Shown here: piece by piece, positions 34,884 to 54,837 of the stretch
How positions within the stretch are numbered: position 1 is the first letter of the stretch
Layout of the letters: every line of letters starts with the position of its first letter
DNA from: Candidatus Woesearchaeota archaeon
GTDB lineage: Archaea; Nanobdellota; Nanobdellia; Pacearchaeales; GW2011-AR1
Reading direction: 5' to 3'
Assembly (NCBI GenBank): GCA_964485325.1
Contig: CAZAIT010000001.1
Location: 1 to 58,663 of the forward strand
Length of the DNA stretch: 58,663 bases
The notes under the pieces: generated by a model
What the model saw: the letters and a program-made list of their open reading frames with translations, nothing else
Told to the model about the DNA's origin: nothing
Database searches by the model: none
Program-made: the position numbers and the translations under genes

Positions 34884-34918
34884 CGCAATTCTTATAAAGT
34901 GGTTTTTTGTGGTTTTAT

Positions 34919-35178: not shown

Positions 35179-35212
35179 TTAATTTTATAAAGTTCTTCTC
35201 TATCTCTTTAGT

Positions 35213-35776
35213 ATGGTGATGGGTAAACGTGGTCAAATTTTTTTATTGGCAGCTGTTATAATTTCTGTTGTTGTGCTTAGCTTAGGTGCGACTACAAATA
35301 GAGCGATTATAAATAGCGAGCCTGATGATTTCTATAATTTTGGTTATGAGGTAAAAAGAGAGTCGAGCGCTGTTTTAGATTATGAAATTTATACTGGAGA
35401 AGTTTTAGAAGATGAAGGTATGGGAGAGTTTGCAGATTCTCTTATAAGGAATATTAAAGGAAAAGAATCAAAATCTAATTTTGTTGTTATCTATGGAAGC
35501 AACGTTACTGGAATTACAATAAAAGGAAAGTGGAAGGATTCTGAAACAACTGGCTTAATATCTTATAGAGGTACTAATATACCTATTAATGATGATGATT
35601 TTGATGAAAAATTTATAGATCCAAGAGATCTTGAGCCAGAAGATCTTGAGGATGAAACCAAATTAATTGTTACATTTGGAGATCAAGAATTTGAATTTCC
35701 GATTTTTGAGTATAAGCAAGTTATTTTTATAATACAAAAGGAAGTGGGTGATGAAAGTTTTATCTCTGTTAGGTAA
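35213..35776 (+). CDS. prepilin-like protein (class III signal peptide)
   Basis: MVMGKRGQIFLLAAVIISVVVLSL N-terminus; acidic globular remainder. Confidence 0.6.
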   Translation: MVMGKRGQIFLLAAVIISVVVLSLGATTNRAIINSEPDDFYNFGYEVKRESSAVLDYEIYTGEVLEDEGMGEFADSLIRNIKGKESKSNFVVIYGSNVTGITIKGKWKDSETTGLISYRGTNIPINDDDFDEKFIDPRDLEPEDLEDETKLIVTFGDQEFEFPIFEYKQVIFIIQKEVGDESFISVR

Positions 35777-36227
35777 GGACAAGAATGCTTTGAGTAATGT
35801 TGTAGGATATGTTTTGTTGATTTCTGTTACTATTTCAATTTCTGTTTTGGTGTTCGGTTGGTTACGTTTTTATGTTAGTGAATCTGATGTAGAAACTTGT
35901 CCTGATAATATTAATGTCATTATAGAAAATTATACTTGTCCTACTGGTGATGGTTTTAATGTTACTCTAAAAAATAAAGGATTATTTACAGTGGATGGAT
36001 ATGTATTAAGATTTCATAATAAGAGTAATGCAGAATTTGGATTTTATCTTCTCGATGGAGAGGGAGTAGCTATTAGTCCAGGAGAGAGCTTTGAAGAAAA
36101 ATATTCTTTTGGTGATAATCCAGGATTAGCAAATATAAAATTAATTGAAGTCCAGCCTTTCATTAATGATGATGATGAAAATAAAATAACTTGTAAATAT
36201 TATGCGTCACAAAGAGTTACTTGTTAG
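35751..36227 (+). CDS. archaeal pilin-like protein
   Basis: KNALSNVVGYVLLISVTISISVLVFGW N-terminal helix. Cys pair ETC...KITC. ATG at 35751. Confidence 0.6.
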   Translation: MKVLSLLGKDKNALSNVVGYVLLISVTISISVLVFGWLRFYVSESDVETCPDNINVIIENYTCPTGDGFNVTLKNKGLFTVDGYVLRFHNKSNAEFGFYLLDGEGVAISPGESFEEKYSFGDNPGLANIKLIEVQPFINDDDENKITCKYYASQRVTC

Positions 36228-36264
36228 TGGCTATATTTATAAATTATAAAAATCATATAATAAT

Positions 36265-36726
36265 ATGAAAAAGAGTGTTAAAAATAAACGCGGGCTTTCT
36301 CCTGTGCTTGCTAATGTTTTAATGGTGTTGTTAGTTTTAGTTTTGGCATCTATAATTTTTTTATGGGCTCGAGGATTTATTAGTGAACAGATTGAAAAAT
36401 TTGGTACTCCTATTGAAGATGCGTGTTCTCTAGTTAGCTTTGAAGTTAATAAGTTAGGAAGTAATAAATTAGAAGTTATTAATCGTGGGAATATTAATAT
36501 TCGTCATTTGGATATTAAATTGTCGGACGCTGAAGGTAATTCTGAAATGCGTAGATTTGATTTTGAAATAGATGTAGGAGAAGTTATTGTTAGAGATATC
36601 TTTTTGGAGATGACAAGTGGTAAAGATATAGAGAGTACAATTGTTTATCCTGCTTTAATAGGGAATGTCAAGGGCAAAGACTTAAATAAAGTTTTTACTT
36701 GTATGAATGTAGGAGTTAAGTTATGA
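36265..36726 (+). CDS. archaeal type IV pilin-like protein
   Basis: MKKSVKNKRGLSPVLANVLMVLLVLVLASIIFLWARGF. Paralogue of 6104. Cys pair DACS...FTC. Confidence 0.75.
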   Translation: MKKSVKNKRGLSPVLANVLMVLLVLVLASIIFLWARGFISEQIEKFGTPIEDACSLVSFEVNKLGSNKLEVINRGNINIRHLDIKLSDAEGNSEMRRFDFEIDVGEVIVRDIFLEMTSGKDIESTIVYPALIGNVKGKDLNKVFTCMNVGVKL

Positions 36727-36745
36727 TTGAAAGGAGGTTTAAAAA

Positions 36746-37246
36746 ATGTATAATAAAAAAGTAAATAAAAAATCCTTGAGTTCGTCTCACGGGATTCAAA
36801 AAAGAGGTATTTCGGCTATTGTTGCTACAGTTTTGATAATCTTAATTACTGTTGCTGCGGTTACAATTCTTTGGGCGGCAGTTATTCCATTAGTTCGTGA
36901 TAATCTTGAAAGTGGAACAGTTTGTTTAGATGCTTCGACTGGGCTTACATTGAGTGATTCCGGATATACTTGTGTTAACACTACTAATGTTTCATTGCAA
37001 ATAAAACATGGAGCTAAGGCTTTTGATGTAGAGGAAATTCAGGTTCTGATTTATGCTAGTGGAGATACTACGACAAAAACAATAACAACAGGTTTGCCTG
37101 GTCCTAATGAGGAGAAGGTATTCTTAATTACACATGGTCTTACGGCTGCTAATATAGAAAAGGTTGAAATTGCACCGGTTGTTTTGATTGGCAATACTAA
37201 GAAAACTTGTGATGTTTCGGCGAGTATAGCTATTAAACCTTGTTAG
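36746..37246 (+). CDS. archaeal type IV pilin-like protein
   Basis: QKRGISAIVATVLIILITVAAVTILWAAV. Cys near the helix end and at the C-terminus. Confidence 0.7.
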   Translation: MYNKKVNKKSLSSSHGIQKRGISAIVATVLIILITVAAVTILWAAVIPLVRDNLESGTVCLDASTGLTLSDSGYTCVNTTNVSLQIKHGAKAFDVEEIQVLIYASGDTTTKTITTGLPGPNEEKVFLITHGLTAANIEKVEIAPVVLIGNTKKTCDVSASIAIKPC

Positions 37247-37268
37247 TTTAATTATTCTTTTTTAAACT

Positions 37269-37300
37269 GGCCCGTTAAGGGCCTTTTAATTTTTTTAATT
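37269..37300 (+). terminator. GC hairpin plus T-runs after the pilin sub-operon
   Basis: GGCCC-GTTAA-GGGCC (37269-37283) followed by TTTTAATTTTTTTAATT. Confidence 0.5.
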
Positions 37301-37307
37301 TTTTACG

Positions 37308-37335
37308 AAAAAGTATATAGAGTAATATACTTTTT
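37308..37335. promoter_or_regulatory. palindrome (11-bp arms, 6-nt spacer), second copy of the 4690 element
   Basis: AAAAAGTATAT-AGAGTA-ATATACTTTTT, preceded by TTTTTTACGA as at 4681. A TATA-like AAATATATAAAG lies about 25 nt before the ATG at 37395. Confidence 0.5.
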
Positions 37336-37394
37336 ACATTTCACGAATATATTCTCCTAGGAAAATATATAAAGAAGATTTTTCTTTTATAGTT

Positions 37395-37931
37395 ATGAGG
37401 ATGATTGGAAAAAAAGGACAAGTTTGGGTGGAGACTGTGATTTATACTTTGATTGGTTTGGCTATTATTGCATTGGTTCTTGCTGCCGCCTTACCTAAGA
37501 TAAACGCAAAAAAAGATGAGGTTATGATTGAGCAATCTATTGAAGCTCTTAGTAATATTAATAGTAAGGTTTATGAGGTCTTTTATAAGCCTGAAGGAAA
37601 CAATCGTATTGTAAATTTAGAAATTAGAAAAGGTGCATTGATTATTAATATGGATGATAACACGGTTTCATGGATTTTAGATTCTAGCTTTCTTTATAGT
37701 CAGGAAAATGAAGAAATTGCTGTTGGAAATGTGTATGTAAATACAACAAGAGGTAAACCTTGGCAAGTTGAATTAAAATTGAATTATAGCGATATGAATA
37801 TTACGTATAATGATGATAGTACTGGAACAAAACGACTAGATATTGCACCTAATCCGTATAAGCTTGCTATTTCAAAAACCATTCCTACTGTGTCTGGAAA
37901 CCCCATAATTAATTTTGCTGAATCTGGATAA
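37395..37931 (+). CDS. prepilin-like protein with bacterial-style G/xxxxE processing motif
   Basis: MRMIGKKGQVWVETVIYTLIGLAIIALVLA; Glu at +5 after the Gly. Confidence 0.6.
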   Translation: MRMIGKKGQVWVETVIYTLIGLAIIALVLAAALPKINAKKDEVMIEQSIEALSNINSKVYEVFYKPEGNNRIVNLEIRKGALIINMDDNTVSWILDSSFLYSQENEEIAVGNVYVNTTRGKPWQVELKLNYSDMNITYNDDSTGTKRLDIAPNPYKLAISKTIPTVSGNPIINFAESG

Positions 37932-37990
37932 TAGCATTACAGGAACAAATAAAGAAATAGTTTTATATAACCTGTTTATGTAAAATTGGT

Positions 37991-39520
37991 ATGAGTGATA
38001 TTAGTATAGATTCTAATCCGAAGGTTCCGATGATTCCGAAATTTGAGGATAAGACAAAAATTGATGTGAGGTATATGGTGATTGTTCCGTACGTTTCTAT
38101 TCATGTTTATTATGATGAGAAATCTGGAGAAGTTATTTATGATGTTGAAGAGCCTATTCTTTCTGAAAAAGAAAAGTCGAATTTAGACAAAATTGAACGA
38201 GCTATAAGAGAAGTTGTTGATGTTAGTATGGTTGATGTAGATAATACTAGAGAAAAGTTGTTGGACTATATAGATAAGACTGCTAGGTTAATTATTTCAG
38301 AATTGGGTTTAAATATTGAGGAAGAGAGTTATAAAAAAATGTTTTATTATTTGTATAGAAATTTTATTGGTCTGAATGAAATTGAACCGATAATGAAGGA
38401 TTATTTTATTGAAGATGTAGAGTGTAATGGGATGGGAGAGAATATGTATATTGTGCATAGAGTTTTTAGAAATATTAAGACTAATGTTAAGTTTGATAAT
38501 ATGAATAAATTATCAAGTTTTGTAGAAAAATTGGCTCAAAAGACTGGACGTTATATTTCTTATGCTTCGCCTATTTTAGATGGAAGTTTGCCAGATGGCT
38601 CCAGGGTTAATGCAACATATACCCAAGACATTTCATCCAAGGGTCCTACTTTTACTATTCGTAAATTTACAAAGACTCCATGGACGCCTACACAATTACT
38701 TGGATTTCATACTCTTAGTCCAGAGATGTTAGCGTATTTTTGGATATTATTACAGTATCAATCTAATCTTATGATTGTTGGTGGTACGGCATCTGGTAAG
38801 ACCACCTTGCTAAATGCAATGGCTTTTTTTATTCCACAGGAAAACAGAGTAGTTTCTATAGAGGATACTAGAGAATTGAATCTGCCCAGAGAAAATTGGT
38901 TACCTTCGGTTGTGAGAACTGGAGTTTCCGAAGGAGGAGCTGGAGGAGTTGATATGTTTTCTTTGCTTAGGAGTTCATTTAGACAAAATCCTGATTATGT
39001 AATTGTTGGTGAAGTTAGGGGAAAGGAGGCATCGGTTTTATTCCAGGGAATGGCTTCAGGGCATGCCTCTATCTCTACTATGCATGGTGATTCCGTTGAT
39101 TCAATTATTCGTAGGTTGGAAACTCCACCCATTAGTTTGAGTCCAATGTTGGTTAATGTATTGGATGTAATGGTAATAATGACTCATGCAATCGTAAATG
39201 GGAAAGAAACTAGAAGATTAAGGGAAATTGTTGAGATTGTGAAAGTCGAAGCGGATGGGACTGCTATGACCAATACACCATTTAAGTGGAATCCTGCAGA
39301 TGATAAATTTTATCATGCAAAAGGTAGTAAAATCTTTGATAAGATTGCTCAAAAAATTGGAACTACAACCGAAGAGTTACAGAAAGAGTTTGTAATCCGA
39401 GCCAAATTATTATATGCTTTATTTCAAAATAAAGTTGTGAGCTATGAAGACGTCCAAAGGCTGATAAATGACTATGCAAAAAAACCAGCTGAGATTTTGA
39501 AAAAGTATGGAGTTCAGTGA
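37991..39520 (+). CDS. type IV pilus/archaellum-family secretion ATPase (GspE/FlaI/PilB-like)
   Basis: Walker A GGTASGKTTLLNA, VVSIEDTRELNL, PDYVIVGEVRG, STMHGDS. Confidence 0.9.
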   Translation: MSDISIDSNPKVPMIPKFEDKTKIDVRYMVIVPYVSIHVYYDEKSGEVIYDVEEPILSEKEKSNLDKIERAIREVVDVSMVDVDNTREKLLDYIDKTARLIISELGLNIEEESYKKMFYYLYRNFIGLNEIEPIMKDYFIEDVECNGMGENMYIVHRVFRNIKTNVKFDNMNKLSSFVEKLAQKTGRYISYASPILDGSLPDGSRVNATYTQDISSKGPTFTIRKFTKTPWTPTQLLGFHTLSPEMLAYFWILLQYQSNLMIVGGTASGKTTLLNAMAFFIPQENRVVSIEDTRELNLPRENWLPSVVRTGVSEGGAGGVDMFSLLRSSFRQNPDYVIVGEVRGKEASVLFQGMASGHASISTMHGDSVDSIIRRLETPPISLSPMLVNVLDVMVIMTHAIVNGKETRRLREIVEIVKVEADGTAMTNTPFKWNPADDKFYHAKGSKIFDKIAQKIGTTTEELQKEFVIRAKLLYALFQNKVVSYEDVQRLINDYAKKPAEILKKYGVQ

Positions 39521-39601
39521 TGAATATTTATTTATTCTTTTTTAAATTAATTTAGAAGTCTTGACAACATTAATAAAGATATTTTCTTTTGTTATTTAAA
39601 G

Positions 39602-39772
39602 ATGGTAGATATTGAATTTGTTGGTCAGTTAGTTGATTCTATGCATGAAGCTGTTTTATTATTGGATAAAGCTGTTATAGATAAAGATAAAGAAAGAACC
39701 CATAAGTTAAAAATTTTTATTTTTGATTTACACAATCAGATTTCTAATATTATCGGAGGGCAAAATGTTTGA
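39602..39772 (+). CDS. small helical protein (56 aa), coupled to the platform gene
   Basis: ATG at 39602 and TGA at 39770-39772, overlapping the ATG at 39765 of the next gene (ATGTTTGA). Below the ORF-track size cut-off. Confidence 0.4.
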   Translation: MVDIEFVGQLVDSMHEAVLLLDKAVIDKDKERTHKLKIFIFDLHNQISNIIGGQNV

Positions 39773-41096
39773 GAGTTTAAAGAAAAATCTTGAGCAGGAA
39801 AAAAATATTATTGTTAACATGCAGTCTATTCAGAACACTATGCAAAATGATCCAGCTAATAAGAAATTTTATGATGCAAATTTACAAGGGTTGCTTAGAC
39901 AATTAGCGATTTTGAATAATGCTATTCCTGATTTATTAAAAGAAGGAGGTTTGTCAGCCAAATCTATTAGTCCTAATCCAGTTAGCTCTATAAATAAAGA
40001 TCAAACTAAAAATACTGTTGTCAAAAAAAAACTTCCAGTATATGCAAATAAAATTAGTAAGAATAAAACACAACCTACTCCTAGTACATCTATTCATAAG
40101 TCTGCGCTTAAAGATAGAAAATATGTTACTATTAATAAAGATGATAAAAAGGAATTTTTAAAAAAATTAAAATTATCAGATGGAGCAATGTCTAAAATCA
40201 ATAGAGACGATAAAAAAAAGAGCAAAGTGGTTATCGTTAAACCAAGTTCATTTGCAAGAATTTCAAATAAGCTTTTTAGGAAATATTCTGATAAGTTATC
40301 TCCTCAATTTCTTAATTTAGAAAAAGATTTGAAAAAAGCAAATATTAGATTTTTGTTGTCTACTTATTTATCTATGGCAATTGCCTCAGTAGCGATTGCT
40401 TTTATTTCCGGACTTTTAATTTTTGGGGTATTATTAGCCTTTAGTTTTAGTAATTGGATTTATTTTGCTTTACCTATTGGTTTTTCTGGTGTTGCAATAG
40501 CTATGTTTTATCTGTATCCTTCAAGTGAGGCAAATAGTGTTCAAAAAAAGATTTCTCAAGAGTTACCTTTTGCCACGATTTATATGTCCGCAATTGCTGG
40601 TTCCAATATTGAACCTACCAAAATTTTTAAGATAATTGCTTCTTCTGAAGAGTATCCAAATATAGGTAAAGAAATTCGTAAGATAATTGCACAAGTTCAT
40701 ATTTATGGTTATGATTTAGTGACGTCTTTAAAAAATGTCGCGGTTAGAACATCTAACAAAAGATTATCAGAATTATTTTCTGGGCTGGCTACAAATATAG
40801 CAAGTGGAGGGGAGCTAAAAAATTATCTTGAAAAGAAAGCAGAGAATTTTTTAATGGACTATAGATTAGAGCGACAACAATATTCTGAAATGGCTGGAAC
40901 TTTTATGGATGTTTATATTTCTATTTTAATTGCAGCTCCTTTAGTTCTAATGATGATGTTTATTGTGATGAATGTCGCAGGATTGGGTATGGGTGGATTA
41001 AGTATCACAGCTTTACTAAGTCTGAGTATTGTTGGGATAGCTGTTGTAAATATCTTTTTTATTGTGGTGCTGAATATGAAACAACCGAAAGTATAA
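39765..41096 (+). CDS. T2SSF-domain platform protein (FlaJ/TadC-like, single domain)
   Basis: Long Lys-rich N-terminal region, then a TM-flanked T2SSF-like segment LPFATIYMSAIAGSNIEP...LFSGLATNIASGGELKNYL. ATG at 39765 preferred over the TTG at 39723. Confidence 0.75.
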   Translation: MFESLKKNLEQEKNIIVNMQSIQNTMQNDPANKKFYDANLQGLLRQLAILNNAIPDLLKEGGLSAKSISPNPVSSINKDQTKNTVVKKKLPVYANKISKNKTQPTPSTSIHKSALKDRKYVTINKDDKKEFLKKLKLSDGAMSKINRDDKKKSKVVIVKPSSFARISNKLFRKYSDKLSPQFLNLEKDLKKANIRFLLSTYLSMAIASVAIAFISGLLIFGVLLAFSFSNWIYFALPIGFSGVAIAMFYLYPSSEANSVQKKISQELPFATIYMSAIAGSNIEPTKIFKIIASSEEYPNIGKEIRKIIAQVHIYGYDLVTSLKNVAVRTSNKRLSELFSGLATNIASGGELKNYLEKKAENFLMDYRLERQQYSEMAGTFMDVYISILIAAPLVLMMMFIVMNVAGLGMGGLSITALLSLSIVGIAVVNIFFIVVLNMKQPKV

Positions 41097-41128
41097 AGTT
41101 ATATAAATAGAAAAGACATTTTCTCATA

Positions 41129-41872
41129 ATGAGAAAGTTGGTGAATAAGCGAGGTTCTGCACATTTTGAAATGATTATTTCATTTATATTTTTTATTGGA
41201 TTTGTATCTTTTCTTTTTGTTACTCTAAAACCTACTGATTCCCATGTATTACCTAGTGCTGTTGTATCAGGACTTTATGATTCTTTTGAACAAGAAACTT
41301 ACACTAATTTTTCTACTGTTTTTTTGAAGATAAATGAGACTACGGCTTCAGGATGTATTAAGATTTCTTTTAAGCTACCCGAAGAACTTTTTAATTATAA
41401 AATAATTGAGAATAGAGTTTATGTTACAGACCTTAATGACAATAGTGTAGTTTCCAGTGTAAATGAAAATAATTGGAAGTTAGCTATAGAAAACAATCGC
41501 GATGAATCTTTTAGAATTGCATTTTCTCCGGAGTTTAGTGATAATGGTGATGTTAATGGTATTGATTGTGAAAACTTGAATCAGGGAAATGATGAATATA
41601 AAATAGGAGAAGTTACTGAAAGGCAAGTTGTTTCTTATAATAAATCAGCAGAGATGAGAGATGAATATTATTCTAATTATGATGATTTAAAAGAAAAATT
41701 AAGAGTTCCTCCTATGTTTGACTTTGCAATTAAATTTGAAACACTAAGTGAATTGAATATGAATAAATCTATTCTAGCTCCAGTAGATGTGATGGTTGAA
41801 GATTATGTGTTTGGAATTTTGAATAGTACAGGCTCTCTTATTAACGAAAGAGTTAGCTTTGCGATTTGGTAA
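41129..41872 (+). CDS. prepilin-like protein with G/xxxxE motif
   Basis: MRKLVNKRGSAHFEMIISFIFFIGFVSFLFV. Confidence 0.55.
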   Translation: MRKLVNKRGSAHFEMIISFIFFIGFVSFLFVTLKPTDSHVLPSAVVSGLYDSFEQETYTNFSTVFLKINETTASGCIKISFKLPEELFNYKIIENRVYVTDLNDNSVVSSVNENNWKLAIENNRDESFRIAFSPEFSDNGDVNGIDCENLNQGNDEYKIGEVTERQVVSYNKSAEMRDEYYSNYDDLKEKLRVPPMFDFAIKFETLSELNMNKSILAPVDVMVEDYVFGILNSTGSLINERVSFAIW

Positions 41873-41918
41873 TTTTATCTTGCGTAAGGTTTATTAGTTT
41901 GTATTGTGTTTTTATTTT

Positions 41919-44345
41919 ATGCCATTTGATGTTGTTATAGGTAGAAATGAAAGTGATAAGAAATCTTTTGGGAATAGAGGTTTGGCTTTTATTGGAAAGA
42001 GTTTTGTAACAATGGGAAATTATACTTCCTTATCTAATCCTATTTTTATGGATGTGGCTAGAAGTCACGTTGTTTTGATATCAGGAAAAAGGGGTTGTCT
42101 TACAGGGGACACGATGATTTTTACTGATAAGGGTTATAAATTTATAAAAGAGTTTAATGAGAAAGAAGATAAAATATTATCATTTGATAAAGATATAAAA
42201 AAGTTTGAGTGGGAAAAGGCAAAGCTTTTGAGTTATCCAATAAAAAATGAGGATTTATTCAAAATAGAATTAAAAGATGGTAGAGTAATTAATTTAACAA
42301 ATGAGCATCCGTTATTATCTTCTTATGGTAAATATATTTATTATAGACGAGCTTGTGATTTGAAGGTTAATGACAAAATAGTTTTACCAACAACTTTACC
42401 CGAAATTAAGAAGGATGAAGAGAGTTTAAGGATTGCAAGATTGCTTGGATTTATTTTAGCAGATGGGACAATTAATATTAGAAAGGGACGTTTTAAGGAT
42501 GGGAGGGGAGCGTGGTACAATGGAACAAAGGCAAGAATTAGAATTAATAATGCTTGTGATGAGGTTTTAGTTTTGGCAAAAGAGGATTTTGAAAAAGAAT
42601 TTGATATCATTGCTAAGAGATATGAGAGAAATGATTGTAATTGTGAGATTGTTGAGACAAAACATCAAAAAGTTGTGAATAAATTTGTAAAGTTGGGAGT
42701 TCCTGTTGGTTTAAAATCTCACAAAATTCGTGTGCCTCAGATTGTATTTGAAAGCTCTAATAAATTTAAGGTAGAATTTATTTCGGCTTTGTTTGATTGT
42801 GATGGTTCTATTTCTAAGAATTCAAATACAATTGATTATTCAAGTAAATCAAGAAAATTTTTAGAAGATTTGCAGATTTTGTTATCTCATTTTAATATTG
42901 AGTCTGTGATAAGAGTCAAAAATGCAAAGTGTAATGGAAAAGTTTTTGAGAATTTTCGGTTGTTTATTACAGATAATAATTCTATTGAAAATTTTAAAAA
43001 AATCGGTTTTCATAGCGAATTTAAGCAAGAGAGATTAAATAAGCATAAATCCAATGGGACAAAGAAAAGGAAGACGCATTATCTATCGGAAAATTTGGCT
43101 TGTAGAAGGATTAAATCTATTGAAAAATTAAAAAATGTTGAAAAAGTTTATGATTTATCTGTTGATAAAAATCATTCTTTTATCGCGAATGGATTAATTT
43201 CACATAACTCTGGGAAGAGCTATACTATGGGAACAATGGCTGAATCTTTATCTGATTTAGGTGCTGAAGAGTCCGGAAATATAGCTTCTGTAATTTTTGA
43301 TACGATGGGAATTTATTGGACTATGAAATATAAAAATGTCAAGGATGCTGGACTTTTGGATGAGTGGGGATTGAAGGCAAAAAATATTCCTATGAGGGTG
43401 TTTGCTCCTTTTGGATATTATCAGGAATATAAAGATAAAGGTGTCGAAGTGGATAGTGAATTTGCAATTAAAATTTCTGAGCTAGAGCCTTCAGATTGGG
43501 TAACGCTTTTTGAGTTAAAGTTTACAGATACTATAGCTGTTGTAATCGAATCAGTTATTAGTGAATTGAGAGAATCAAAACAGAGTTATGGTTTTGAAAA
43601 TATTTATGATTTGATTAACCGTATTGAACACGTAGAGCAGGAAGTTAAAAATTCTGTTACGGCTTTGTTTGATGCAGCCAGGACATGGAAAATTTTTGAT
43701 GAAGAAAAAGGAACTTTGGTTCGAGATTTAATTTCTGCTGGGCAAACTACTGTGATAGATTTGTCTATGTATGCTTCTCTTGGATCGTTTAATGTTAGAG
43801 CTTTAATTATAGGGCTAGTTTCTAAGAAAATTTTTAATGAAAGAATGGCTTCGAGGAAAGACGAAGAAATTCAGGCGGTGCAACATGGTGCAGATTATGC
43901 TAGGTATAGAATTAAACGAGAGATGCCTCTGGTTTGGATATTTGTAGATGAGGCCCATGAGTTTTTGCCAAGAGAAGGAAAAACTCCGGCTACGGATGCA
44001 TTAGTTCAATTACTTAGAGAAGGAAGGCAGCCTGGGGTTTCAATAGTTATGGCAACTCAGCAACCGGGTAAAATTCATACAGATGCGATGACTCAGTCGG
44101 ATATTGTTATTTCTCATAGAGTTACGGCGAAATTGGATGTGGATGCTTTGAACGACATTACTCAGAGTTATATGTATGAAAATATTTCTTCAAAATTAAA
44201 TGGGTTGCCGAGATTGAAAGGCTCTGCAATTATTTTAGATGATAATTCTGAAAGAATTTATCCTATGAGAGTTAGACCAAGATTTACATGGCACGGTGGG
44301 GAAGCTCCTACTGCTATTAGAAAGATAGACGAAGATATCAATTAG
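41919..44345 (+). CDS. HerA/FtsK-superfamily (DUF87-like) P-loop ATPase, interrupted by an intein
   Basis: Exteins join as VVLISGKRG|SGKSYTMGT, giving Walker A GKRGSGKS. Walker B LVWIFVDEAHEF, then MATQQPGKI. ATG at 41919 preferred over the TTG at 41904. Confidence 0.85.
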   Translation: MPFDVVIGRNESDKKSFGNRGLAFIGKSFVTMGNYTSLSNPIFMDVARSHVVLISGKRGCLTGDTMIFTDKGYKFIKEFNEKEDKILSFDKDIKKFEWEKAKLLSYPIKNEDLFKIELKDGRVINLTNEHPLLSSYGKYIYYRRACDLKVNDKIVLPTTLPEIKKDEESLRIARLLGFILADGTINIRKGRFKDGRGAWYNGTKARIRINNACDEVLVLAKEDFEKEFDIIAKRYERNDCNCEIVETKHQKVVNKFVKLGVPVGLKSHKIRVPQIVFESSNKFKVEFISALFDCDGSISKNSNTIDYSSKSRKFLEDLQILLSHFNIESVIRVKNAKCNGKVFENFRLFITDNNSIENFKKIGFHSEFKQERLNKHKSNGTKKRKTHYLSENLACRRIKSIEKLKNVEKVYDLSVDKNHSFIANGLISHNSGKSYTMGTMAESLSDLGAEESGNIASVIFDTMGIYWTMKYKNVKDAGLLDEWGLKAKNIPMRVFAPFGYYQEYKDKGVEVDSEFAIKISELEPSDWVTLFELKFTDTIAVVIESVISELRESKQSYGFENIYDLINRIEHVEQEVKNSVTALFDAARTWKIFDEEKGTLVRDLISAGQTTVIDLSMYASLGSFNVRALIIGLVSKKIFNERMASRKDEEIQAVQHGADYARYRIKREMPLVWIFVDEAHEFLPREGKTPATDALVQLLREGRQPGVSIVMATQQPGKIHTDAMTQSDIVISHRVTAKLDVDALNDITQSYMYENISSKLNGLPRLKGSAIILDDNSERIYPMRVRPRFTWHGGEAPTAIRKIDEDIN
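42096..43208 (+). mobile_element. intein with LAGLIDADG homing-endonuclease domain (371 codons, in frame)
   Basis: Starts CLTGDTMIF, block B NLTNEHPLL, dodecapeptide motifs LLGFILADGTI and ALFDCDGSI, ends VYDLSVDKNHSFIANGLISHN followed by Ser. Inserted inside the P-loop. Confidence 0.85.
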
Positions 44346-44392
44346 TGGGTTATTGTAGTAATGTTTAAATATTATAATATTGTGATTAGTTT

Positions 44393-44893
44393 ATAAAAAA
44401 GGGGCTTAGTCCAACTATTGGTGTTGTTCTTCTAGTCTTATTGGTGATTATTATTTCTGGAATAGTGTTTGTTTGGAGTAAGGATTTAATTTCAAATGAT
44501 AAAGAGCAAGCTTTAGGGGAAAAAATGTGTAAAGAAGTTGAGCTCGCTGTTGGGGATTTTTGTAAAATGAGAGTAGATGGGATTGTGGAGGGAGATGAAT
44601 ATCATATAAAGTTTAGTGGAAGGAATGATGCTACAGGAGTGGGACTATATGGTTTTCTTATGATTGTAGATTATGCGACCGGAGATGCCTCTGCAAAATC
44701 TATATCTATTCCGAGTTTACCATATAGTGAAATGGCAGTTGGTGATGTTAGGAGTATTTCAAGTGATGCAATAAAGGATGCTTCTTTAATAGAACGTATT
44801 ACAATTTTACCTAAAATAGAAGTTGAAGAGAAAGTATTTACTTGTGAAGAAGAAGAAAAAGTTATGACATGGGAGGAGATTGTAGCTTGTTAA
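44393..44893 (+). CDS. archaeal pilin-like protein lacking a canonical start codon
   Basis: In-frame upstream extension of ORF 44441 reads (ATA)KKGLSPTIGVVLLVLLVIIISGIVFVW, a textbook class III signal peptide. In-frame TAG at 44387-44389. Only ATA at 44393 is available as a start. Confidence 0.5.
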   Translation: MKKGLSPTIGVVLLVLLVIIISGIVFVWSKDLISNDKEQALGEKMCKEVELAVGDFCKMRVDGIVEGDEYHIKFSGRNDATGVGLYGFLMIVDYATGDASAKSISIPSLPYSEMAVGDVRSISSDAIKDASLIERITILPKIEVEEKVFTCEEEEKVMTWEEIVAC

Positions 44894-44894
44894 T

Positions 44895-47800
44895 ATGAAA
44901 AAACTTTTTTATTTTGCTTTATTTTTTTCTTTGTTAGTTATGGGTTTCGCATCGGCATCTATTAATATTAATCCTAATAGTGTAGAACTGGGAAAAGAAG
45001 TTGTAATTACTATTGATATGAATAGTTATGGTAATTATGTCTATTTTTATGATGACGCTGAAAACATGATAAGTTCTTACAGTTTAGGTTGTGCAGATAA
45101 TTTGTGTTCTAAAAAGACAACCTTTCAATATTTAATTGATGATTTTGATTTAGGAAATTATAAGATAGCTGTTTATTCTCACGACGATAACAAGTGGTTG
45201 TTTAGTAATTTTGAAGTTGTTGAATATAGATGTTCTGATAGAACTTTAGTTGGTGAGTGTTCTTCTACTAAACCTAAATATTGTGGAGAGGGAGAAATTT
45301 TGGTTGATGATTGTTCGAAGTGTGGATGTCTTGATGGGTATAATTGTCAGGAAGATGAGACATGTACGTTTACTCCTTTTTGTGGGGATGATAATTGTGA
45401 CACAATAGAAAGTTGTAATATCTGTCCTGATGATTGTGGAAGATGTGAGTATTCTGTAGGTCCAAATAAAAAAAATGAAGAATTATATTCTGACAAAGAA
45501 GTTTTTTTAGTTTCGGATAGTGACTGGAAAGAAGTTTTACCATTTGTCTCTGCTACAGTTTGGACGGAAAGAGATGAAATTCGAAAATATCCTTTTTTAG
45601 TTTATCATGAAGAGTTTACTTCTTGTTCTCTTTCTGGTAATAAATGCTATAAGTATGATATAGATTCCTCGATCTATTTTATGCAACAATATAACCCAGA
45701 TAAATTAACAATTATTGGAGAAACTCCGCAAGAAATAGATGATTTATTAATTTATGAAAATGATGGAAGCGATTTGAGTGGACCAGAATTATCTCTAGAC
45801 CATATTCAAAGAATTTCTAATGATGATTATTTAACTTATTGGGAAACTTTTGATAAAGTTGTTTACGTTGAGGATGATTATGAATTAGCTCTGTTGGCTT
45901 CTACTTATGCGTCATTAATTAATGCGCCTTTAATTATTGAAGGAAACATCCATGATTCTTTGGGAATATTCAATGGTAGAAACGTTATTTGTATTGGGGA
46001 AGTTTTACCTAGTGGAAAGGCTTGTGGTGAGAAATATAATTTAGAAGAGCTGCGAGATAAGTATAAAACAGAGACTAATACAAATAAAGTTATTTTGATT
46101 AACCCAACGGATTGGGGTACTGGTATTTCTTCATATTTTAATTTTAATCCAGATAAAACTAGTGGTAATAATAAACATCTTTATACTAAAACCTCTTTAA
46201 TTTCTCCTATATTAGCTTCATCTAAGCATGAATTAATATTAAGCACAAATGAAACAGATTATCTTAAAATTGATAAGTTTATTGCTCCTGGAATTTCGGA
46301 TATGGATTATTTGACGATTATGGCCGCATCAAATGTTATTCCACATACAAAGTTTAGACAGAGGATGGCTCATGCTTTTGATTGGGCACTTGATTCATCT
46401 CATTATGCAGATATAAATGGAGATTATATTCCAGATGTAGCTGTCGGAAGAATTGCTGGATTGACTAGTTCAGATGTATCTAGTTATGTAGCAAGAGCTA
46501 TTTTTTATGACACTTTCCCAAGAACAGAAAATACAAAGTTTATGGCAAGTTCTTTTCTCGGTTCTTTAGCAGCTATAGCTATTGAGAGGTCATTTGCATT
46601 TTCTTTAGCGGGATATAATTCAGAAAGTAAGACAACTATACTTCCTGCTAATTGGGATTGGAATTTTTTTACTTCAGAAGATTGGAAAAACCAAGATTTA
46701 ATATTTTATTTAGATCATGGAAGTACTGATTGGTCTGGAATTTATTCCTCTAAAGTTCCTCTCTTAGATAATTCTCTTGTTTTTTCAGTAGCCTGTGACA
46801 CTGCCGCTACATACAGACCTAATTCTTTCTGGGCGATAGCAATAAGAAAGGGAGCTATTGGATATTATGGAGCTACTAGTATTACTGGATTAAATAATAA
46901 TTATATTGATATTTTAAATGAGATTTATTCTTTTAGAACAACTACAATGGGGGGCGCTTTTAAAGAAAAATGGAGTACTTTTATTATGCATGGGATGACT
47001 ACCCTAATTGGAGACCCTACATTAGATATTAATCCTCCACATCATATTGGTCTTCAACCCAGAAGCAATATATGTAACCCTGAAAAAGAATTATGTTTAA
47101 CGAATGGTCAATGTTGTGATGATTTACGGTGTGAACTTTTTACTTGTAAAGGTTGTCAAGAGGCAGCAAATATTTGTTTATTTAATACTGATTGTTGTAG
47201 TGGATTACAGTGTAGTTGGGCTACATGTTCAGACTGTAATAATAATAATGAAGGATGTCTTGTTAAAAATGATTGTTGTGAAAGTACTGCTGGATGTTAT
47301 ATGTTTGAATGTGGTTTGCGAGAAATAGATGAAAGTTGTTTATTAAATACTGATTGTGGCATAGATGCTTTCGGTTGCCATATGTTTGAATGTGGTTTGC
47401 GAGGGATAGGGGAAAGCTGTCTCTTTAATGATGATTGTGAAAGAAATTTAGATTGTGCAGGTTGGGCATGTACTGATGGAGAGAATGGACAGAGTTGTAG
47501 TAGTGCTGAAGATTGTAGTTCTGATTTTTGTTATTGGGGAACATGTATGGATAGATTTCCAAATGGAAATGGGTGTCTTCTTGATAATGATTGTGCCTCT
47601 GACAGATGTAGTTGGTTCGTGTGTAGAAGTACTGGTTATGTGGATCCTTTAAATGATTGTGGTGGAGCTGACTCAAATTGTGGTACTAAACCGAATTGTT
47701 TAGATTGTAATGCAGTAAATCCTCCTGTTGAACCTGATTGTAAAGCGGGAGATAAGTTATGGCACAAATACTATCATTGTGATGGAGCCGAATGTGCAAA

Positions 47801-48107
47801 AGATATTTGGCGATCTGAAACCGAAACATGTACATGGGATTGTAAAGGTAGCGCATGTACTAATGGAAATAATGGAGAGAGTTGTAGTGATGATGGAGAT
47901 TGTAAATCTGATTTTTGTTATTGGGGGACATGTAAAGCATGTTATACTCCTGGAATCAAAGTTGGTGATTTGACTTTTAAATCTCCAGATCACTGTTGTA
48001 GTGGATGGGAACAAAAAACAAAGTCGGTATGTCGGCTTTGGGGTGGAGCTGGTTGCAAATGGTATTCTCATACAAAAATAGTAAATGATTATAAAGCGTG
48101 TAGATAA
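44895..48107 (+). CDS. 1070-aa secreted protein: C25 (gingipain)-like cysteine peptidase core plus C-terminal cysteine-rich repeat array
   Basis: Signal peptide LFYFALFFSLLVMGFASA. His/Cys dyad context IFYLDHGSTDWSG (His608, nt 46716) and LVFSVACDTAA (Cys634, nt 46794). From nt 47073 there are tandem C-x-n-DCC/DC-x-n-C modules. Confidence 0.75.
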   Translation: MKKLFYFALFFSLLVMGFASASININPNSVELGKEVVITIDMNSYGNYVYFYDDAENMISSYSLGCADNLCSKKTTFQYLIDDFDLGNYKIAVYSHDDNKWLFSNFEVVEYRCSDRTLVGECSSTKPKYCGEGEILVDDCSKCGCLDGYNCQEDETCTFTPFCGDDNCDTIESCNICPDDCGRCEYSVGPNKKNEELYSDKEVFLVSDSDWKEVLPFVSATVWTERDEIRKYPFLVYHEEFTSCSLSGNKCYKYDIDSSIYFMQQYNPDKLTIIGETPQEIDDLLIYENDGSDLSGPELSLDHIQRISNDDYLTYWETFDKVVYVEDDYELALLASTYASLINAPLIIEGNIHDSLGIFNGRNVICIGEVLPSGKACGEKYNLEELRDKYKTETNTNKVILINPTDWGTGISSYFNFNPDKTSGNNKHLYTKTSLISPILASSKHELILSTNETDYLKIDKFIAPGISDMDYLTIMAASNVIPHTKFRQRMAHAFDWALDSSHYADINGDYIPDVAVGRIAGLTSSDVSSYVARAIFYDTFPRTENTKFMASSFLGSLAAIAIERSFAFSLAGYNSESKTTILPANWDWNFFTSEDWKNQDLIFYLDHGSTDWSGIYSSKVPLLDNSLVFSVACDTAATYRPNSFWAIAIRKGAIGYYGATSITGLNNNYIDILNEIYSFRTTTMGGAFKEKWSTFIMHGMTTLIGDPTLDINPPHHIGLQPRSNICNPEKELCLTNGQCCDDLRCELFTCKGCQEAANICLFNTDCCSGLQCSWATCSDCNNNNEGCLVKNDCCESTAGCYMFECGLREIDESCLLNTDCGIDAFGCHMFECGLRGIGESCLFNDDCERNLDCAGWACTDGENGQSCSSAEDCSSDFCYWGTCMDRFPNGNGCLLDNDCASDRCSWFVCRSTGYVDPLNDCGGADSNCGTKPNCLDCNAVNPPVEPDCKAGDKLWHKYYHCDGAECAKDIWRSETETCTWDCKGSACTNGNNGESCSDDGDCKSDFCYWGTCKACYTPGIKVGDLTFKSPDHCCSGWEQKTKSVCRLWGGAGCKWYSHTKIVNDYKACR

Positions 48108-48108
48108 A

Positions 48109-48927
48109 ATGGAAAATGGAAAAATAATGGCTATAAGAATATTTATCTTAATAATTATGATTCAATTAGTTAGTGCTACTTCTATTATGGTAGATATGGA
48201 TGAAGCATATGAAACGGGAGACGGAATTTCTTTTAATTATACTTTTTTATCTGATGTTTCACAAGATATAGAGTATATCGCATCTGTTAGTTGTCCAAAT
48301 GCACCTAATGAATTAATTGAGATTCTAAATATGAGTTTAATTGCAGATATTCCATTTACTAGAACTTACGTTTATATGACTAATCTTAATGATGATATAG
48401 AACCTCAGTCATGTGAAGCAATAGTAGCGATGATGAGTCCGGAAGAAACGTCAAAGAAGGAATCTTTTCAGATAGTTACTAGTCCGATTTTTGATTTTCG
48501 AATTTTAATTTGTAAAGATGAATCCTGTCTTGATCAATCCAAATTTTTTATCTTAAATAATAATATTTATTTTGATTATTTTTCTGAAGAAACTCAAGAC
48601 ATTACAATAATATCTACTCTAAAATATCCAGATGGTAACATCGAATCTATAGAATTACCATCTTCTATTAAGTTGGAACAGCTTGGAACTTATGAATTAG
48701 AAGTTATTTCTTCTAAAAATGGATATAAAGATGTGGAACAATCTATTCAATTTGGAGTGATTGAGAAAAATGCTGAAATTCATGAAGGGTTCTTACCTAT
48801 CGAGAAAGATAAACCTGAAATAGAAGAAGAATCTCTTGTTTTTATTATATTAGGTGTTTTATTGTTGGTTATTGTTGGATTTATTTTGTTTAAGGTTGTA
48901 AAGAAAAAATATTTTTGTGAATATTAA
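48109..48927 (+). CDS. secreted, C-terminally membrane-anchored hypothetical protein
   Basis: Signal sequence IMAIRIFILIIMIQLVSA. C-terminal TM LVFIILGVLLLVIVGFILF plus KVVKKK. ATG at 48109, 2 nt after the preceding stop. Confidence 0.55.
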   Translation: MENGKIMAIRIFILIIMIQLVSATSIMVDMDEAYETGDGISFNYTFLSDVSQDIEYIASVSCPNAPNELIEILNMSLIADIPFTRTYVYMTNLNDDIEPQSCEAIVAMMSPEETSKKESFQIVTSPIFDFRILICKDESCLDQSKFFILNNNIYFDYFSEETQDITIISTLKYPDGNIESIELPSSIKLEQLGTYELEVISSKNGYKDVEQSIQFGVIEKNAEIHEGFLPIEKDKPEIEEESLVFIILGVLLLVIVGFILFKVVKKKYFCEY

Positions 48928-51529: not shown

Positions 51530-52354
51530 ATGAAATTAAAAAAAATACATTGGATGGGTATGGGAGTTGGAATTTTATTGGCTACAGGTTCAGTACTTAT
51601 GTTTTCTGGAACTAATTTGATGTATTTTTTATTAGCTGTTTCTTTGGTTATAGGATCACTTCCCTTTATGTTGGGTTTTCTTTCCACACAAGATAAGTAC
51701 AGAGAGAAGGAAGAGAAATTTTTGGAATTTACAAGAGATTTAGTAGAGAATGTTCGATCTGGAACTCCTATTACTAAGAGTATTATGAATTTGAATAATA
51801 GAAATTATGGAACTTTAACTAAACATGTGGATAAGTTAGCAAATCAATTATCAATTGGAATTACTTTAACTGATGCACTTAAAACTTTTGCGAGAGACAC
51901 TAGAAGTAAAGTTATCTCTAGGGCTGTTGATTTAATTAGCGAAGCTGAAAGATCAGGTGGAAAAATAGATGTTATTTTAGGATCGGTTTCTGATTCAGTA
52001 AATCAAATTGAGCAACTTCGGAAAGAGAGAAAAGCAGCAATTTCAAATTTGGTTACACAGGGGTATCTAATTTTCTTTATTTTTATTATTATTATGTTGG
52101 TGTTAGAATTTAAAATTTTGCCACTTGTTTCTGGTTTAGGTGGGACAGAAGGTTTGGGAATGGCTACAAGTTCTTCTAATTCTGATGACCTTTCTACTCC
52201 CTTATTTGTGATGATATTGGTTCAATCATTTTTTGCTGGACTTGTTATTGGAAAAATTGCGGAAGGGAGTGTTAAGAATGGATTTAAACATTCATTCATT
52301 TTATTAGCAGTAACTTTGTTAATTACAACGGGTGCGAGAGCTTTGTTTAAATAA
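51530..52354 (+). CDS. T2SSF-domain membrane protein (TadB/FlaJ-half-like)
   Basis: Two N-terminal TM helices, cytoplasmic helical domain ...LANQLSIGITLTDALKTFA...SEAERSGGKIDVIL..., C-terminal TM helices. Confidence 0.65.
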   Translation: MKLKKIHWMGMGVGILLATGSVLMFSGTNLMYFLLAVSLVIGSLPFMLGFLSTQDKYREKEEKFLEFTRDLVENVRSGTPITKSIMNLNNRNYGTLTKHVDKLANQLSIGITLTDALKTFARDTRSKVISRAVDLISEAERSGGKIDVILGSVSDSVNQIEQLRKERKAAISNLVTQGYLIFFIFIIIMLVLEFKILPLVSGLGGTEGLGMATSSSNSDDLSTPLFVMILVQSFFAGLVIGKIAEGSVKNGFKHSFILLAVTLLITTGARALFK

Positions 52355-54805: not shown

Positions 54806-54837
54806 GATTTAAATAGTATATTCTTTTTACTAAATGC

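Follow-up and report, generated by a model that had tools for sequence, protein, structure and literature searches.

Archaeal type IV pili and Tad-like systems, including the Aap, Ups, Epd, and haloarchaeal PilA loci, were surveyed in a census by Makarova, Koonin, and Albers in 2016 (PMC4858521). Divergent "dark matter" pilins beside FlaI and TadC in DPANN islands have already been noted as well (Makarova et al., 2019, PMC6393860). CedB and CedD are the DNA-transfer ATPases of the Ced and Ted systems (bioRxiv 10.1101/2024.09.27.615246; PMC9905601). We analyzed a window of 58,663 nt from a Candidatus Woesearchaeota archaeon, in which 13 plus-strand ORFs between 35213 and 48927 are separated by intergenic gaps of -50 to +148 nt, bearing out the nearly gapless, same-strand arrangement described in an earlier note on this DNA. 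The gene identifications in that note (T2SSE/FlaI-like ATPase, T2SSF, HerA-like ATPase, C25-like protein, and prepilin-like N termini) were all correct; HMM searches recovered T2SSE, T2SSF, DUF87/HerA, and Peptidase_C25, and the prepilin models gave partial support. Its proposal that pilus, ATPase, and C25 protein constitute one operon-like machine did not hold up, as the C25 cassette is absent from the ~160 other ATPase loci and the ATPase is pan-DPANN, stands alone among housekeeping genes in most lineages, and has its own TATA-like element. The block is thus probably not a single new machine; we see about an even chance that it consists of three juxtaposed units, namely, a pilus cluster, a HerA-clade ATPase, and a C25 cassette (Table 1).

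Table 1. Features of the block and its displaced platform gene
Feature	Position	Strand	Length	Details
g01 prepilin-like	35213..35776	+	187 aa	MGKRG|QIFLLAAVIISVVVL; class III signal motif test passed
g02 prepilin-like	35748..36227	+	159 aa	KNA|LSNVVGYVLLISV; start uncertain; class III signal motif test
g03 archaeal type IV pilin	36265..36726	+	153 aa	NKRG|LSPVLANV; TIGR02537, 30.8 bits
g04 archaeal type IV pilin	36746..37246	+	166 aa	QKRG|ISAIVATV; TIGR02537, 18.5 bits; motif test passed
GC-rich hairpin and T-run	37269..37283	+		GGCCCGTTAAGGGCC and TTTTAATTTT; in the sole large gap (148 nt)
g05 prepilin-like	37395..37931	+	178 aa	KKG|QVWVETVIY; Glu at +5; class III motif test
Pilus assembly ATPase, T2SSE/FlaI-like	37991..39520	+	509 aa	Pfam T2SSE, 1.2e-30
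g07 conserved cytoplasmic helical protein	39602..39772	+	56 aa	Between T2SSE ATPase and platform genes
Platform protein 1	39723..41096	+		One T2SSF domain, aa 287-412; Pfam T2SSF, 6.6e-15
g09 prepilin-like	41129..41872	+	247 aa	NKRG|SAHFEMIISFIFF; Glu at +5; class III motif test
TATA-like box, ATPase	41890..41897	+		TTTATTAG; 22-29 nt upstream of ATPase ATG
HerA-clade P-loop ATPase	41919..44345 (ORF 41904-44345)	+	437 aa spliced	DUF87/HerA-type; soluble
Intein with LAGLIDADG homing endonuclease	42096..43208	+	371 aa	Splits P-loop GKRG|SGKS
TATA-like box, cassette pilin	44364..44371	+		TTTAAATA; 22-29 nt upstream of g11 start
g11 cassette prepilin	44393..44893	+	167 aa	KKG|LSPTIGVV; TIGR02537, 22 bits
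C25-like cysteine protease, secreted	44895..48107	+	1070 aa	Peptidase_C25, 4e-13, 49.8 bits, above cut-off
g13 cassette protein	48085..48927	+	280 aa	Signal peptide and C-terminal membrane anchor
Platform protein 2 (T2SSF)	51530..52354	+	274 aa	Pfam T2SSF, 1.5e-17; displaced from the cluster

The first unit is a Woesearchaeales-type (DPANN) type IV pilus cluster, Tad-like and archaeal type IV pilus-like, and typical of such archaea. All seven prepilin-like N termini were found where they had been reported, each with K/R-G ahead of a stretch of ~20 hydrophobic residues; orthologs keep these motifs. Support from TIGR02537, the NCBIfam archaellin/pilin N-terminal domain (cut-off, 20 bits), was obtained for the genes at 36265 and 44393, with the gene at 36746 scoring just under; for the other four, the support consists of the motif and its conservation. 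The gene g03 also matched UpsA (1.5e-6) and Pfam Pilin_N (0.0021), and g04 matched UpsA (1.6e-4). Profile HMM searches gave no match for g01, whose orthologs (25-55% identical) occupy the same position in relatives, or for g02, which has orthologs in 16 loci. Orthologs of g05 are 37-63% identical, and those of g09 occur in ~40 loci, where T2SSF always precedes them and a TATA-like element lies at about -30 in 60%. The hairpin downstream of g04 may mark the end of a g01-g04 pilin unit; it is a lead only, because the region has no more sites of this kind than expected by chance.

The pilus assembly ATPase scored 398 bits with the NCBIfam FlaI model, under the equivalog cut-off of 550, and its orthologs are 56-86% identical. 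Between this gene and the platform gene of the cluster lies g07, which has orthologs in 27 loci (35-64% identity) and no match in family searches. Platform protein 1 also matched ArlJ/FlaJ (2.2e-26), and its true start is likely the ATG at 39765 (MFESLKK...). It has a single T2SSF domain, as had been proposed, but it is not the sole platform gene: the second T2SSF, outside the block, has 65% identity to its counterpart in a relative (L001), where that second gene lies within the cluster, and is displaced likewise in the closest relative (L005). The gene order of pilins, T2SSE, 56-aa protein, T2SSF (twice), and g09 is kept in relatives. Like described archaeal type IV pilus loci, the cluster places several genes for prepilins with class III signal peptides on one strand together with those for a T2SSF platform and a T2SSE-family ATPase. 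It differs from them in that the platform is encoded by two single-domain genes, as with TadB/TadC, in the conserved 56-aa protein, in the Glu at +5 of two prepilins, and in lacking a prepilin peptidase in the window, where none was found among the ORFs scanned, as the earlier note had also stated. The literature searched contained no experimental study of any member of this type of pilus cluster.

The second unit is the HerA-clade ATPase, with Walker A (GKRGSGKS) and Walker B (VWIFVDEAHEF) motifs. The spliced protein matched Pfam DUF87 (3.7e-12) as well as HerA_C, and we compared its AlphaFold2 model (pLDDT, 89.4) with known structures, a comparison with CedB, VirB4, and HerA having been suggested previously. 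The predicted fold matched HerA DNA translocases and not VirB4 or CedB: the top 50 Foldseek matches were all HerA-type, with no VirB4-type structure among them, and Thermococcus kodakarensis HerA was the best (E, 1.5e-19; TM, 0.68). HerA of the HerA-NurA systems of Sulfolobus, Thermococcus, and Deinococcus (PDB 4d2i, 9x1m, 7wrw) is the best structural match overall (E, 1e-19 to 1e-16; TM, 0.6-0.68) and shares the RecA-like core with a helical insertion. However, the window ATPase is ~60-140 residues shorter, has a short beta-hairpin in place of the HAS barrel, is only 12-18% identical in sequence, and scores 32-37 bits with the NCBIfam HerA models, whose cut-offs are 800-970. It also lacks a nearby NurA/Mre11/Rad50 operon, and no DNA-repair partner, such as any of these three, was consistently adjacent to the ATPase. 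Because the ATPase has no full HAS barrel, a HerA-like housekeeping role is itself something that we infer.

Homologs of the ATPase number more than 6,800 overall, the best 120 being 78-91% identical, and 335 GTDB species hold a relative. Identity is 60-91% within Nanoarchaeota and 35-50% in Aenigmatarchaeota and Nanohaloarchaeota, to which the family extends (including Candidatus Nanohalobium constans). Within the evenly weighted three-unit interpretation, the ATPase would be an independent, core, single-copy pan-DPANN gene of a very conserved, uncharacterized family.

The P-loop of the ATPase is split by an intein, a canonical class 1 element with a LAGLIDADG endonuclease at Walker A (Intein_splicing, 8.9e-21; LAGLIDADG_3, 1.3e-19), in which Cys1, the terminal His-Asn, and the +1 Ser are present; it shows nothing unusual compared with other inteins in P-loops of conserved ATPases. 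The spliced ATPase aligns over its full length with orthologs that have no intein, and the best 120 homologs and all but a few of the ~160 other ATPase loci are intein free. Inteins are recurrent among the cluster representatives of the family, at this Walker A site and at another close to Walker B. The possibility that the gene sits here as intein-driven cargo was rejected, since relatives carry intein-free orthologs at the corresponding position and the family has been invaded by the intein repeatedly. A broader version of this idea would assign the ATPase to a mobile element or to anti-phage defense (HerA-type, similar to mad8 of MADS), or explain its presence by the intein alone; this reading is in our view very improbable. 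It draws on the intein, on PADLOC matches to HerA (68 bits) and, over nearly the full length, to mad8 (65 bits), and on PHROG terminase and FtsK-like matches over the C-terminal part, but the gene is single copy, 60-91% conserved across hundreds of species, and stably placed beside TYW2, and no effector, methyltransferase, integrase, or repeat adjoins it.

We then considered the neighborhood of the ATPase across DPANN. Of 48 informative genomes in the clade of the window, 46 have the ATPase gene immediately behind same-strand pilus genes (ATPase identity, 62-91%), and pilin identity drops to 25-30% in this deep clade; conservation of the neighborhood was thus confirmed for the pilus-ATPase part and not for the C25 part. 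Most of these genomes carry an extra prepilin gene of ~140 aa (median, 146 aa) between g09 and the ATPase, with a short gap to the latter. Beyond this clade, linkage to pilus genes was found in only one further small clade (L087, L088, L093, L096), with the genes arranged differently (T2SSF-T2SSF-pilin, or three pilins) and an ATPase only ~44% identical. Because only 3.3% of genes in ATPase loci are pilus-like, two independent associations exceed what chance would readily give. Moreover, ATPase and T2SSE diverge at similar rates (62 versus 56%, 90 versus 85%). These observations count in favor of a rival reading, with the ATPase as an accessory motor of the DPANN pilus, a cytoplasmic hexamer docked on the T2SSF platform or on a partner channel that would pull pilus-captured DNA or another polymer into the cell by analogy with ComFA or CedB/VirB4. 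The HerA clade does include the DNA importers CedB and CedD (bioRxiv 10.1101/2024.09.27.615246), and, like them and VirB4, the window ATPase is a HerA-clade P-loop protein, encoded in one clade beside a filament system.

We consider a functional link of the ATPase to the pilus possible but rather unlikely. The ATPase lacks a transmembrane segment and a VirB4-like N-terminal domain, no CedA/VirB6-like channel gene lies nearby, and the CedB, CedD, and VirB4 models gave 24-35 bits against cut-offs of 590-700; its top fold matches are all cytoplasmic DNA-repair or defense HerA proteins. In ~100 other lineages, the ATPase is found alone among housekeeping genes (RFC, DsbA-like, M48, SurA-like, Hef, Ku/ligase, or ribosomal genes); the 10 kb to either side are free of pilus genes, and neither T2SSE nor T2SSF lies nearby. 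The ATPase also occurs without the pilus cluster in two close relatives (L009 and L030). The neighbor most widely kept is TYW2 (52 loci), which is on the opposite strand, so that synteny here can persist without an operon. In addition, 63% of the ATPase genes linked to a pilus and 57% of those without such linkage have a TATA-like 8-mer beginning between -30 and -26, compared with at most 0.09 and 0.20, respectively, in flanking bins. By this pattern, the ATPase has its own predicted promoter irrespective of linkage, which, for an accessory motor, would only add independent regulation; being internal, it may still allow coregulation.

Unlinked clades often have an envelope-biogenesis gene immediately upstream of the ATPase on the opposite strand, encoding a DsbA-like thioredoxin (21 loci), an M48/HtpX-like protease (14 loci), or a SurA-like PPIase (13 loci), and an M50-like protease is the neighbor in Nanohalo- and Aenigmatarchaeota. 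Together with the pilus-linked clade, most ATPase loci therefore adjoin an envelope gene. The ATPase could accordingly belong to envelope or secretion biology, powering, for example, the export of surface proteins or their quality control, by analogy with type VII secretion and its FtsK-like EssC/EccC ATPases, with pili as only one client. We consider this improbable, as these neighbors lie on the other strand and vary from clade to clade, and the ATPase has no membrane anchor and matches DNA translocases in fold.

The third unit lies downstream. The description of the ATPase as embedded between pilin genes is true of this genome only, g11 being part of a separate cassette. In this genome, g11 begins with ATA, in place of the ATG that three sibling contigs have there, and the TATA-like box in front of it is a putative cassette promoter. 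Residues H608 and C634 of the C25-like protein are conserved without exception in 24 homologs, and 232 homologs were found across DPANN. It resembles gingipain-type peptidases of family C25 in its Pfam score above the gathering threshold, invariant His-Gly and Ala-Cys, secretion, and multidomain architecture, and differs from them in being archaeal, in having a dedicated prepilin on one side and an anchor protein on the other, and in its Cys-rich C terminus of cystine-rich repeats weakly like knottin toxins; solved C25 structures gave no match by sequence. No homologs of g11, C25, or g13 were found in 83 ATPase loci at first pass or in ~160 in all, and different secreted proteins occupy the gap between ATPase and TYW2 in other genomes. 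Conversely, the three genes occur together in two loci away from any such ATPase (L174 and L175), where g11 homologs precede and g13 homologs (39-47% identical) follow the C25 genes. Prepilin, protease, and anchor would hence form a portable three-gene cassette separate from the ATPase, a view that shares the balanced probability of the overall interpretation.

If the block does consist of three units, a prepilin peptidase from a gene located elsewhere would cleave the six prepilins g01-g05 and g09, and the FlaI-like hexameric ATPase would polymerize them on a TadB/TadC-like platform whose two subunits would be the T2SSF proteins inside and outside the cluster. The selfish intein would have to splice out before the HerA-clade ATPase can work; this ATPase would most likely form a ring that translocates double-stranded DNA, as HerA does, in the handling of the cell's own DNA, and its location after the pilus genes would reflect a gene order passed down in a single clade. 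The cassette, with its own promoter, would have inserted at a variable spot between the ATPase and TYW2 genes and would probably place a protease or adhesin on the cell surface, and the pilus itself would likely serve in attachment to a host or surface.

The block at 35213-48927 was found to comprise 13 ORFs packed on the plus strand, with gaps of -50 to +148 nt, and prepilin-like N-termini were present at all seven genes for which the earlier note had proposed them. In an HMM search of the ORFs, two of these prepilins scored above the cut-off of the NCBIfam pilin N-terminal domain model TIGR02537 and a third fell just below it; for the other four, the class III signal peptide is supported by the motif, which orthologs conserve. 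The proposed GspE/FlaI-type ATPase matched Pfam T2SSE above cut-off. A T2SSF platform gene (T2SSF-1) is located in the block as claimed; it is not the only one, a second platform gene (T2SSF-2) being present further downstream. T2SSF-2 is an ortholog (65% identity) of a second platform gene that relatives carry inside the cluster. It is displaced by about 10 kb and lies immediately before a LAGLIDADG ORF and RtcB. The same displacement was observed in the closest relative with long flanks (locus L005), and the gene is inside the cluster in L001, L004, L007 and L031. Coordinates of the features are collected in the table.

Features of the window, with positions and supporting scores
Feature	Position	Strand	Details
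Secreted protein, 401 aa	4797-6002	+	C-terminal membrane anchor; precedes the 149-aa pilin
Canonical archaeal pilin, 149 aa	6104-6553	+	KKRG followed by LSPVVATV; remote from the cluster
Small membrane protein	11686-12165	+	C-terminal DUF7343 winged-helix-like domain
Small membrane protein, paralog of the preceding	17181-17594	+	C-terminal DUF7343 winged-helix-like domain
Archaeal SRP RNA gene	34918-35179	+	Rfam RF01857, 99.8 bits
GC hairpin and T-run			In the 148-nt gap after prepilin gene g04
T2SSE/FlaI-like ATPase	37991-39520	+	Pfam T2SSE 1.2e-30; NCBIfam FlaI 398 bits (cut-off 550)
T2SSF-1 platform protein	39723-41096	+	T2SSF 6.6e-15
TATA-like box TTTATTAG	41890-41897		Upstream of the HerA-type ATPase, inside the strongly conserved string cgtaaggtttattag
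DUF87/HerA-type ATPase, with intein	41904-44345	+	Start ATG of the spliced protein at 41919
Intein, 371 aa	42096-43208	+	LAGLIDADG domain; starts with Cys, ends with His-Asn, then Ser
TTTAAATA			In the 47-nt gap before cassette pilin g11, at the right distance
g11 start codon	44393-44395	+	ATA in the window
C25-like protein	44895-48107	+	Peptidase_C25, 49.8 bits (gathering cut-off 23)
Tandem cystine-rich modules of the C25-like protein	47040-48107	+	C..G..C.....CC..L.C..F.C
T2SSF-2 platform protein, 274 aa	51530-52354	+	T2SSF 1.5e-17
LAGLIDADG_3 endonuclease ORF, 303 aa	52521-53432	+	Free-standing; overlaps the RtcB-like gene start by 31 nt
RtcB-like gene	53402-54805	+	
ORF of at least 1282 codons	~54800-58663	+	Continues past the 3' edge of the window

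Of the components that define a type IV filament, the T2SSE ATPase, the T2SSF platform and subunits with class III signal peptides were found and the prepilin peptidase was not: in agreement with the earlier note, no A24, PibD, FlaK or EppA homolog was detected among the window ORFs scanned, and the gene may be located elsewhere in the genome. An archaellum, defined by the FlaI equivalog score together with FlaH, FlaF, FlaG and FlaC/D/E or FlaX genes, was rejected, as the FlaI score lies below its cut-off and no FlaH/F/G-type matches were found in the cluster. The pilus cluster is a type IV filament system of a known kind in DPANN, ordinary although unstudied; Makarova et al. (PMC6393860) had already described DPANN islands of this sort, with divergent pilins.

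A 33-nt spacer separates the SRP RNA gene from the first prepilin gene. An SRP RNA also lies directly 5' of pilin genes in the relatives L004, L005 and L014, and in L008 it has moved together with an inverted pilin block. At the other end of the window, the free-standing LAGLIDADG_3 ORF may represent a homing endonuclease or else what is left of an intein, and the ORF running off the 3' end is probably another giant surface protein.

The embedded second motor was confirmed to be a DUF87/HerA-type ATPase. It is split by an intein that has splicing blocks, Cys1, a C-terminal His-Asn and a +1 nucleophile. Removal of the intein rejoins GKRG with SGKS, and the exteins form a 437-aa ATPase that corresponds to an uninterrupted homolog. 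The spliced protein has more than 6800 homologs in a large protein collection; the best 120 of these share 78-91% identity with it, are 432-467 aa long (mostly 436 aa), lack inteins and, where labelled, belong to Nano-, Pace- or Woesearchaeota. Relatives were found in 335 species in a scan of GTDB species representatives, and a profile search recovered distant members, 35-50% identical to the window ATPase, in Aenigmatarchaeota, Nanohaloarchaeota (including the cultivated Ca. Nanohalobium constans, whose ortholog is intein-free) and other DPANN. Many cluster representatives of the family (P0121-P0270) carry inteins or other large insertions at the P-loop (profile position ~61), and some members have a second insertion site near Walker B (profile position ~308) or carry both; intein invasion has therefore been recurrent in this family. 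Some distant paralogs are fusions with DUF835 or winged-helix domains, from which no usable functional clue was obtained. In the literature searched, we found no published description of this family or of its link to a pilus.

The structure of the ATPase was predicted with AlphaFold2 from an alignment of 76 sequences that included distant DPANN members, which yielded a pLDDT of 89.4, compared to 33.8 with 14 close homologs alone. In the comparison with CedB, VirB4 and HerA that had been suggested, the 50 best Foldseek matches of the model in the PDB were all HerA-type (best match: E 1.5e-19, TM 0.68). They included HerA of T. kodakarensis, S. solfataricus and D. radiodurans as well as Sir2-HerA, DUF4297-HerA, TdpA and DndH, and no VirB4, TrwB or FtsK structure was among these 50. 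Similarly to HerA, the ATPase is predicted to have a RecA-like core with a helical insertion. However, it reached only 32-37 bits with the NCBIfam HerA equivalogs (cut-offs 800-970) and has no full HAS barrel, the P-loop being preceded by ~50 residues with one beta-hairpin; NurA, Mre11 or Rad50 gene neighbours were seen at none of ~165 ATPase loci. Given the fold matches, the wide misses by sequence models and the short N-terminal region, the ATPase was therefore placed in the HerA clade, as a separate compact family.

The ATPase also differs from CedD (35 bits, cut-off 600), CedB (24 bits, cut-off 700) and VirB4 (24 bits, cut-off 590), and it has neither a membrane segment nor a VirB4-type N-terminal domain. 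A Ced/VirB4-type system was rejected on the basis of these scores, far below the cut-offs, of a sequence with no hydrophobic segment and of the adjacent genes, among which no CedA/VirB6-like channel gene was seen. Defence HerA proteins (Sir2-HerA, DUF4297-HerA, MADS) were rejected as well: the ATPase-domain matches are weak (65-68 bits), no effector is adjacent and conservation of the gene extends over hundreds of species. The ATPase as intein-driven cargo was likewise rejected, and we give little credence to a role as a defence or mobile-element component.

We then mapped orthologs of the window genes in 80 GTDB and 80 metagenome loci and placed them on a neighbour-joining tree of the ATPase. 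Within the window's clade (52 taxa, ATPase identity 62-91%), T2SSF and/or prepilin genes were located at most three genes upstream of the ATPase, on the same strand, in 46 of the 48 informative genomes; the background frequency of pilus-like genes was 3.3% with a tightened prepilin motif. Ancestrally, the genes were arranged as five prepilins, T2SSE, a 56-aa gene, T2SSF-1, T2SSF-2, prepilin g09, a ~140-aa prepilin and the ATPase. This ~140-aa prepilin (median 146 aa; ...KRGWIRILEATIAV...; GWIRILEA) is conserved in most relatives (L007, at 5751-6185, L010, L013, L018 and ~35 other loci), where it separates g09 from the ATPase. It is missing from the window, L001, L004, L017 and L025, the gene having been lost in the window and a few relatives. 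Outside the window's clade, pilus genes precede the ATPase in only one small group, with T2SSF-T2SSF-pilin in L087 and three prepilins in L088, L093 and L096, and ~100 other taxa have none upstream of it. The same-strand adjacency across a whole clade, recurring in a second one, speaks for the ATPase as a true partner of the pilus, a reading that we consider possible if rather unlikely. The compact ATPase could more specifically be a dedicated DPANN pilus partner, a cytoplasmic translocase importing DNA, or some other polymer of host origin, that the pilus has captured; the linkage in two separate clades would then be the trace of that coupling, and we regard this proposal as quite doubtful.

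Without the pilus link, the ATPase gene stands on its own: it follows the RFC small and large subunit genes and a DsbA-like gene, adjoins M48 or SurA-like genes, is located 5' of Hef/XPF (Nanohalo- and Aenigmatarchaeota) or lies beside Ku, ligase and ribosomal genes. TYW2, encoded on the opposite strand, is the neighbour kept most broadly (52 loci from both major clades); the arrangement of genes near the ATPase can therefore last long without any operon. The predicted HerA fold, the conservation throughout DPANN, a promoter of its own and surroundings that are mostly of the housekeeping kind argue for a DNA-handling housekeeping role independent of the pilus, to which we assign about an even chance.

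At unlinked loci, the upstream opposite-strand gene often encodes an envelope-folding or -processing factor (L058, L069, L077, L080, L105, L135 and others), the neighbours being DsbA-like at 21 loci, M48 at 14 and SurA-like PPIase at 13, with an M50-like gene in Nanohalo- and Aenigmatarchaeota. These DsbA/M48/SurA/M50-type neighbours would suggest a role in the envelope or in secretion, which appears very improbable. In Nanohaloarchaeota and one Aenigmatarchaeote (L084, L085, L090, L095, L098), the ATPase is preceded by TraB-family and M50-like genes and followed by a 171-184-aa gene and then a Hef helicase/XPF nuclease.

The giant secreted protein proved to be C25-like, as proposed. H608-G609 and C634 of its His-Gly and Ala-Cys motifs are invariant in 24 homologs, which, at the sequence level, is consistent with an active protease. 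A phmmer search of the C25 region against the PDB gave no match and the family profile hit a knottin toxin alone, through the Cys repeats; the catalytic dyad therefore rests on Pfam and the invariant residues. The cystine-rich modules in the C-terminal third showed a weak profile match, with E 0.0045, to Xt3a (PDB 7rz3), a spider toxin of the double-knottin type.

The pilus-ATPase part of the neighbourhood is thus conserved in the window's clade; the C25 part is not. No homologs of prepilin g11, the C25 protein or the membrane-anchored protein g13 were found near the ATPase in any other locus compared, and unrelated secreted proteins occupy the gap between the ATPase and TYW2 in relatives. C25 protein homologs are common in DPANN (232 matches), and in two other genomes the homolog lies between a prepilin resembling g11 (30-40% identity) and a protein resembling g13 (39-47%), in one case among housekeeping genes and in the other beside a different T2SSE gene. 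Being absent from other ATPase loci and co-occurring elsewhere, g11, C25 and g13 therefore constitute a portable three-gene cassette.

A 128-kb JGI metagenome contig matches the window almost exactly (1 mismatch in 9.2 kb). The g11 start codon (position 2499 in the sibling contigs L169-L173, otherwise nearly identical) reads ATA in the window as well as in L169 and L173, but ATG in L170-L172, and the pilin may be poorly translated in the window strain.

Within the 70 nt scanned upstream of the ATPase start codon, a TATA-like 8-mer starting at -30 to -26 was found in 63% of the genes with a pilus link and in 57% of those without one, with flanking bins at most 0.09 (linked) and 0.20 (unlinked). 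As the signal occurs in linked and unlinked genes, the ATPase would have its own leaderless-type promoter in all lineages. The same signal is carried by g09 and is lacking in T2SSF. A sigma-70 promoter and terminator scan, a model uninformative for an archaeon, gave counts no higher than shuffled controls. Given the promoter signals of the ATPase, g09 and the cassette, and the hairpin after g04, the block is probably divided into several transcription units, and a single transcript from 37395 to 48927 appears unlikely. What the earlier note had observed was largely borne out; its idea of pilus, HerA-type motor and C25 protein as one operon-like apparatus was supported in part, and the evidence best fits three juxtaposed units, namely the pilus cluster, the ATPase and the cassette.

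DPANN archaea are host-dependent and, to our knowledge, little is known about how they attach and take up material. What remains of interest in the locus is chiefly the conserved HerA-clade ATPase and the linkage of its gene to the pilus cluster in particular lineages. The analysis brought out a large and very conserved family of HAS-less HerA-type ATPases, with thousands of sequences across several DPANN phyla. The portable pilin/C25/anchor cassette suggests how DPANN cells vary their surface proteases and adhesins. If the ATPase is not coupled to the pilus, it would still be a core DPANN enzyme, well worth studying in cultivated Nanohaloarchaeota. Were it to work with the pilus, it would represent a new type of uptake apparatus and, should pilus-coupled import hold true, nucleotide-auxotrophic DPANN would gain an uptake machine made of a type IV filament and a HerA-type motor.
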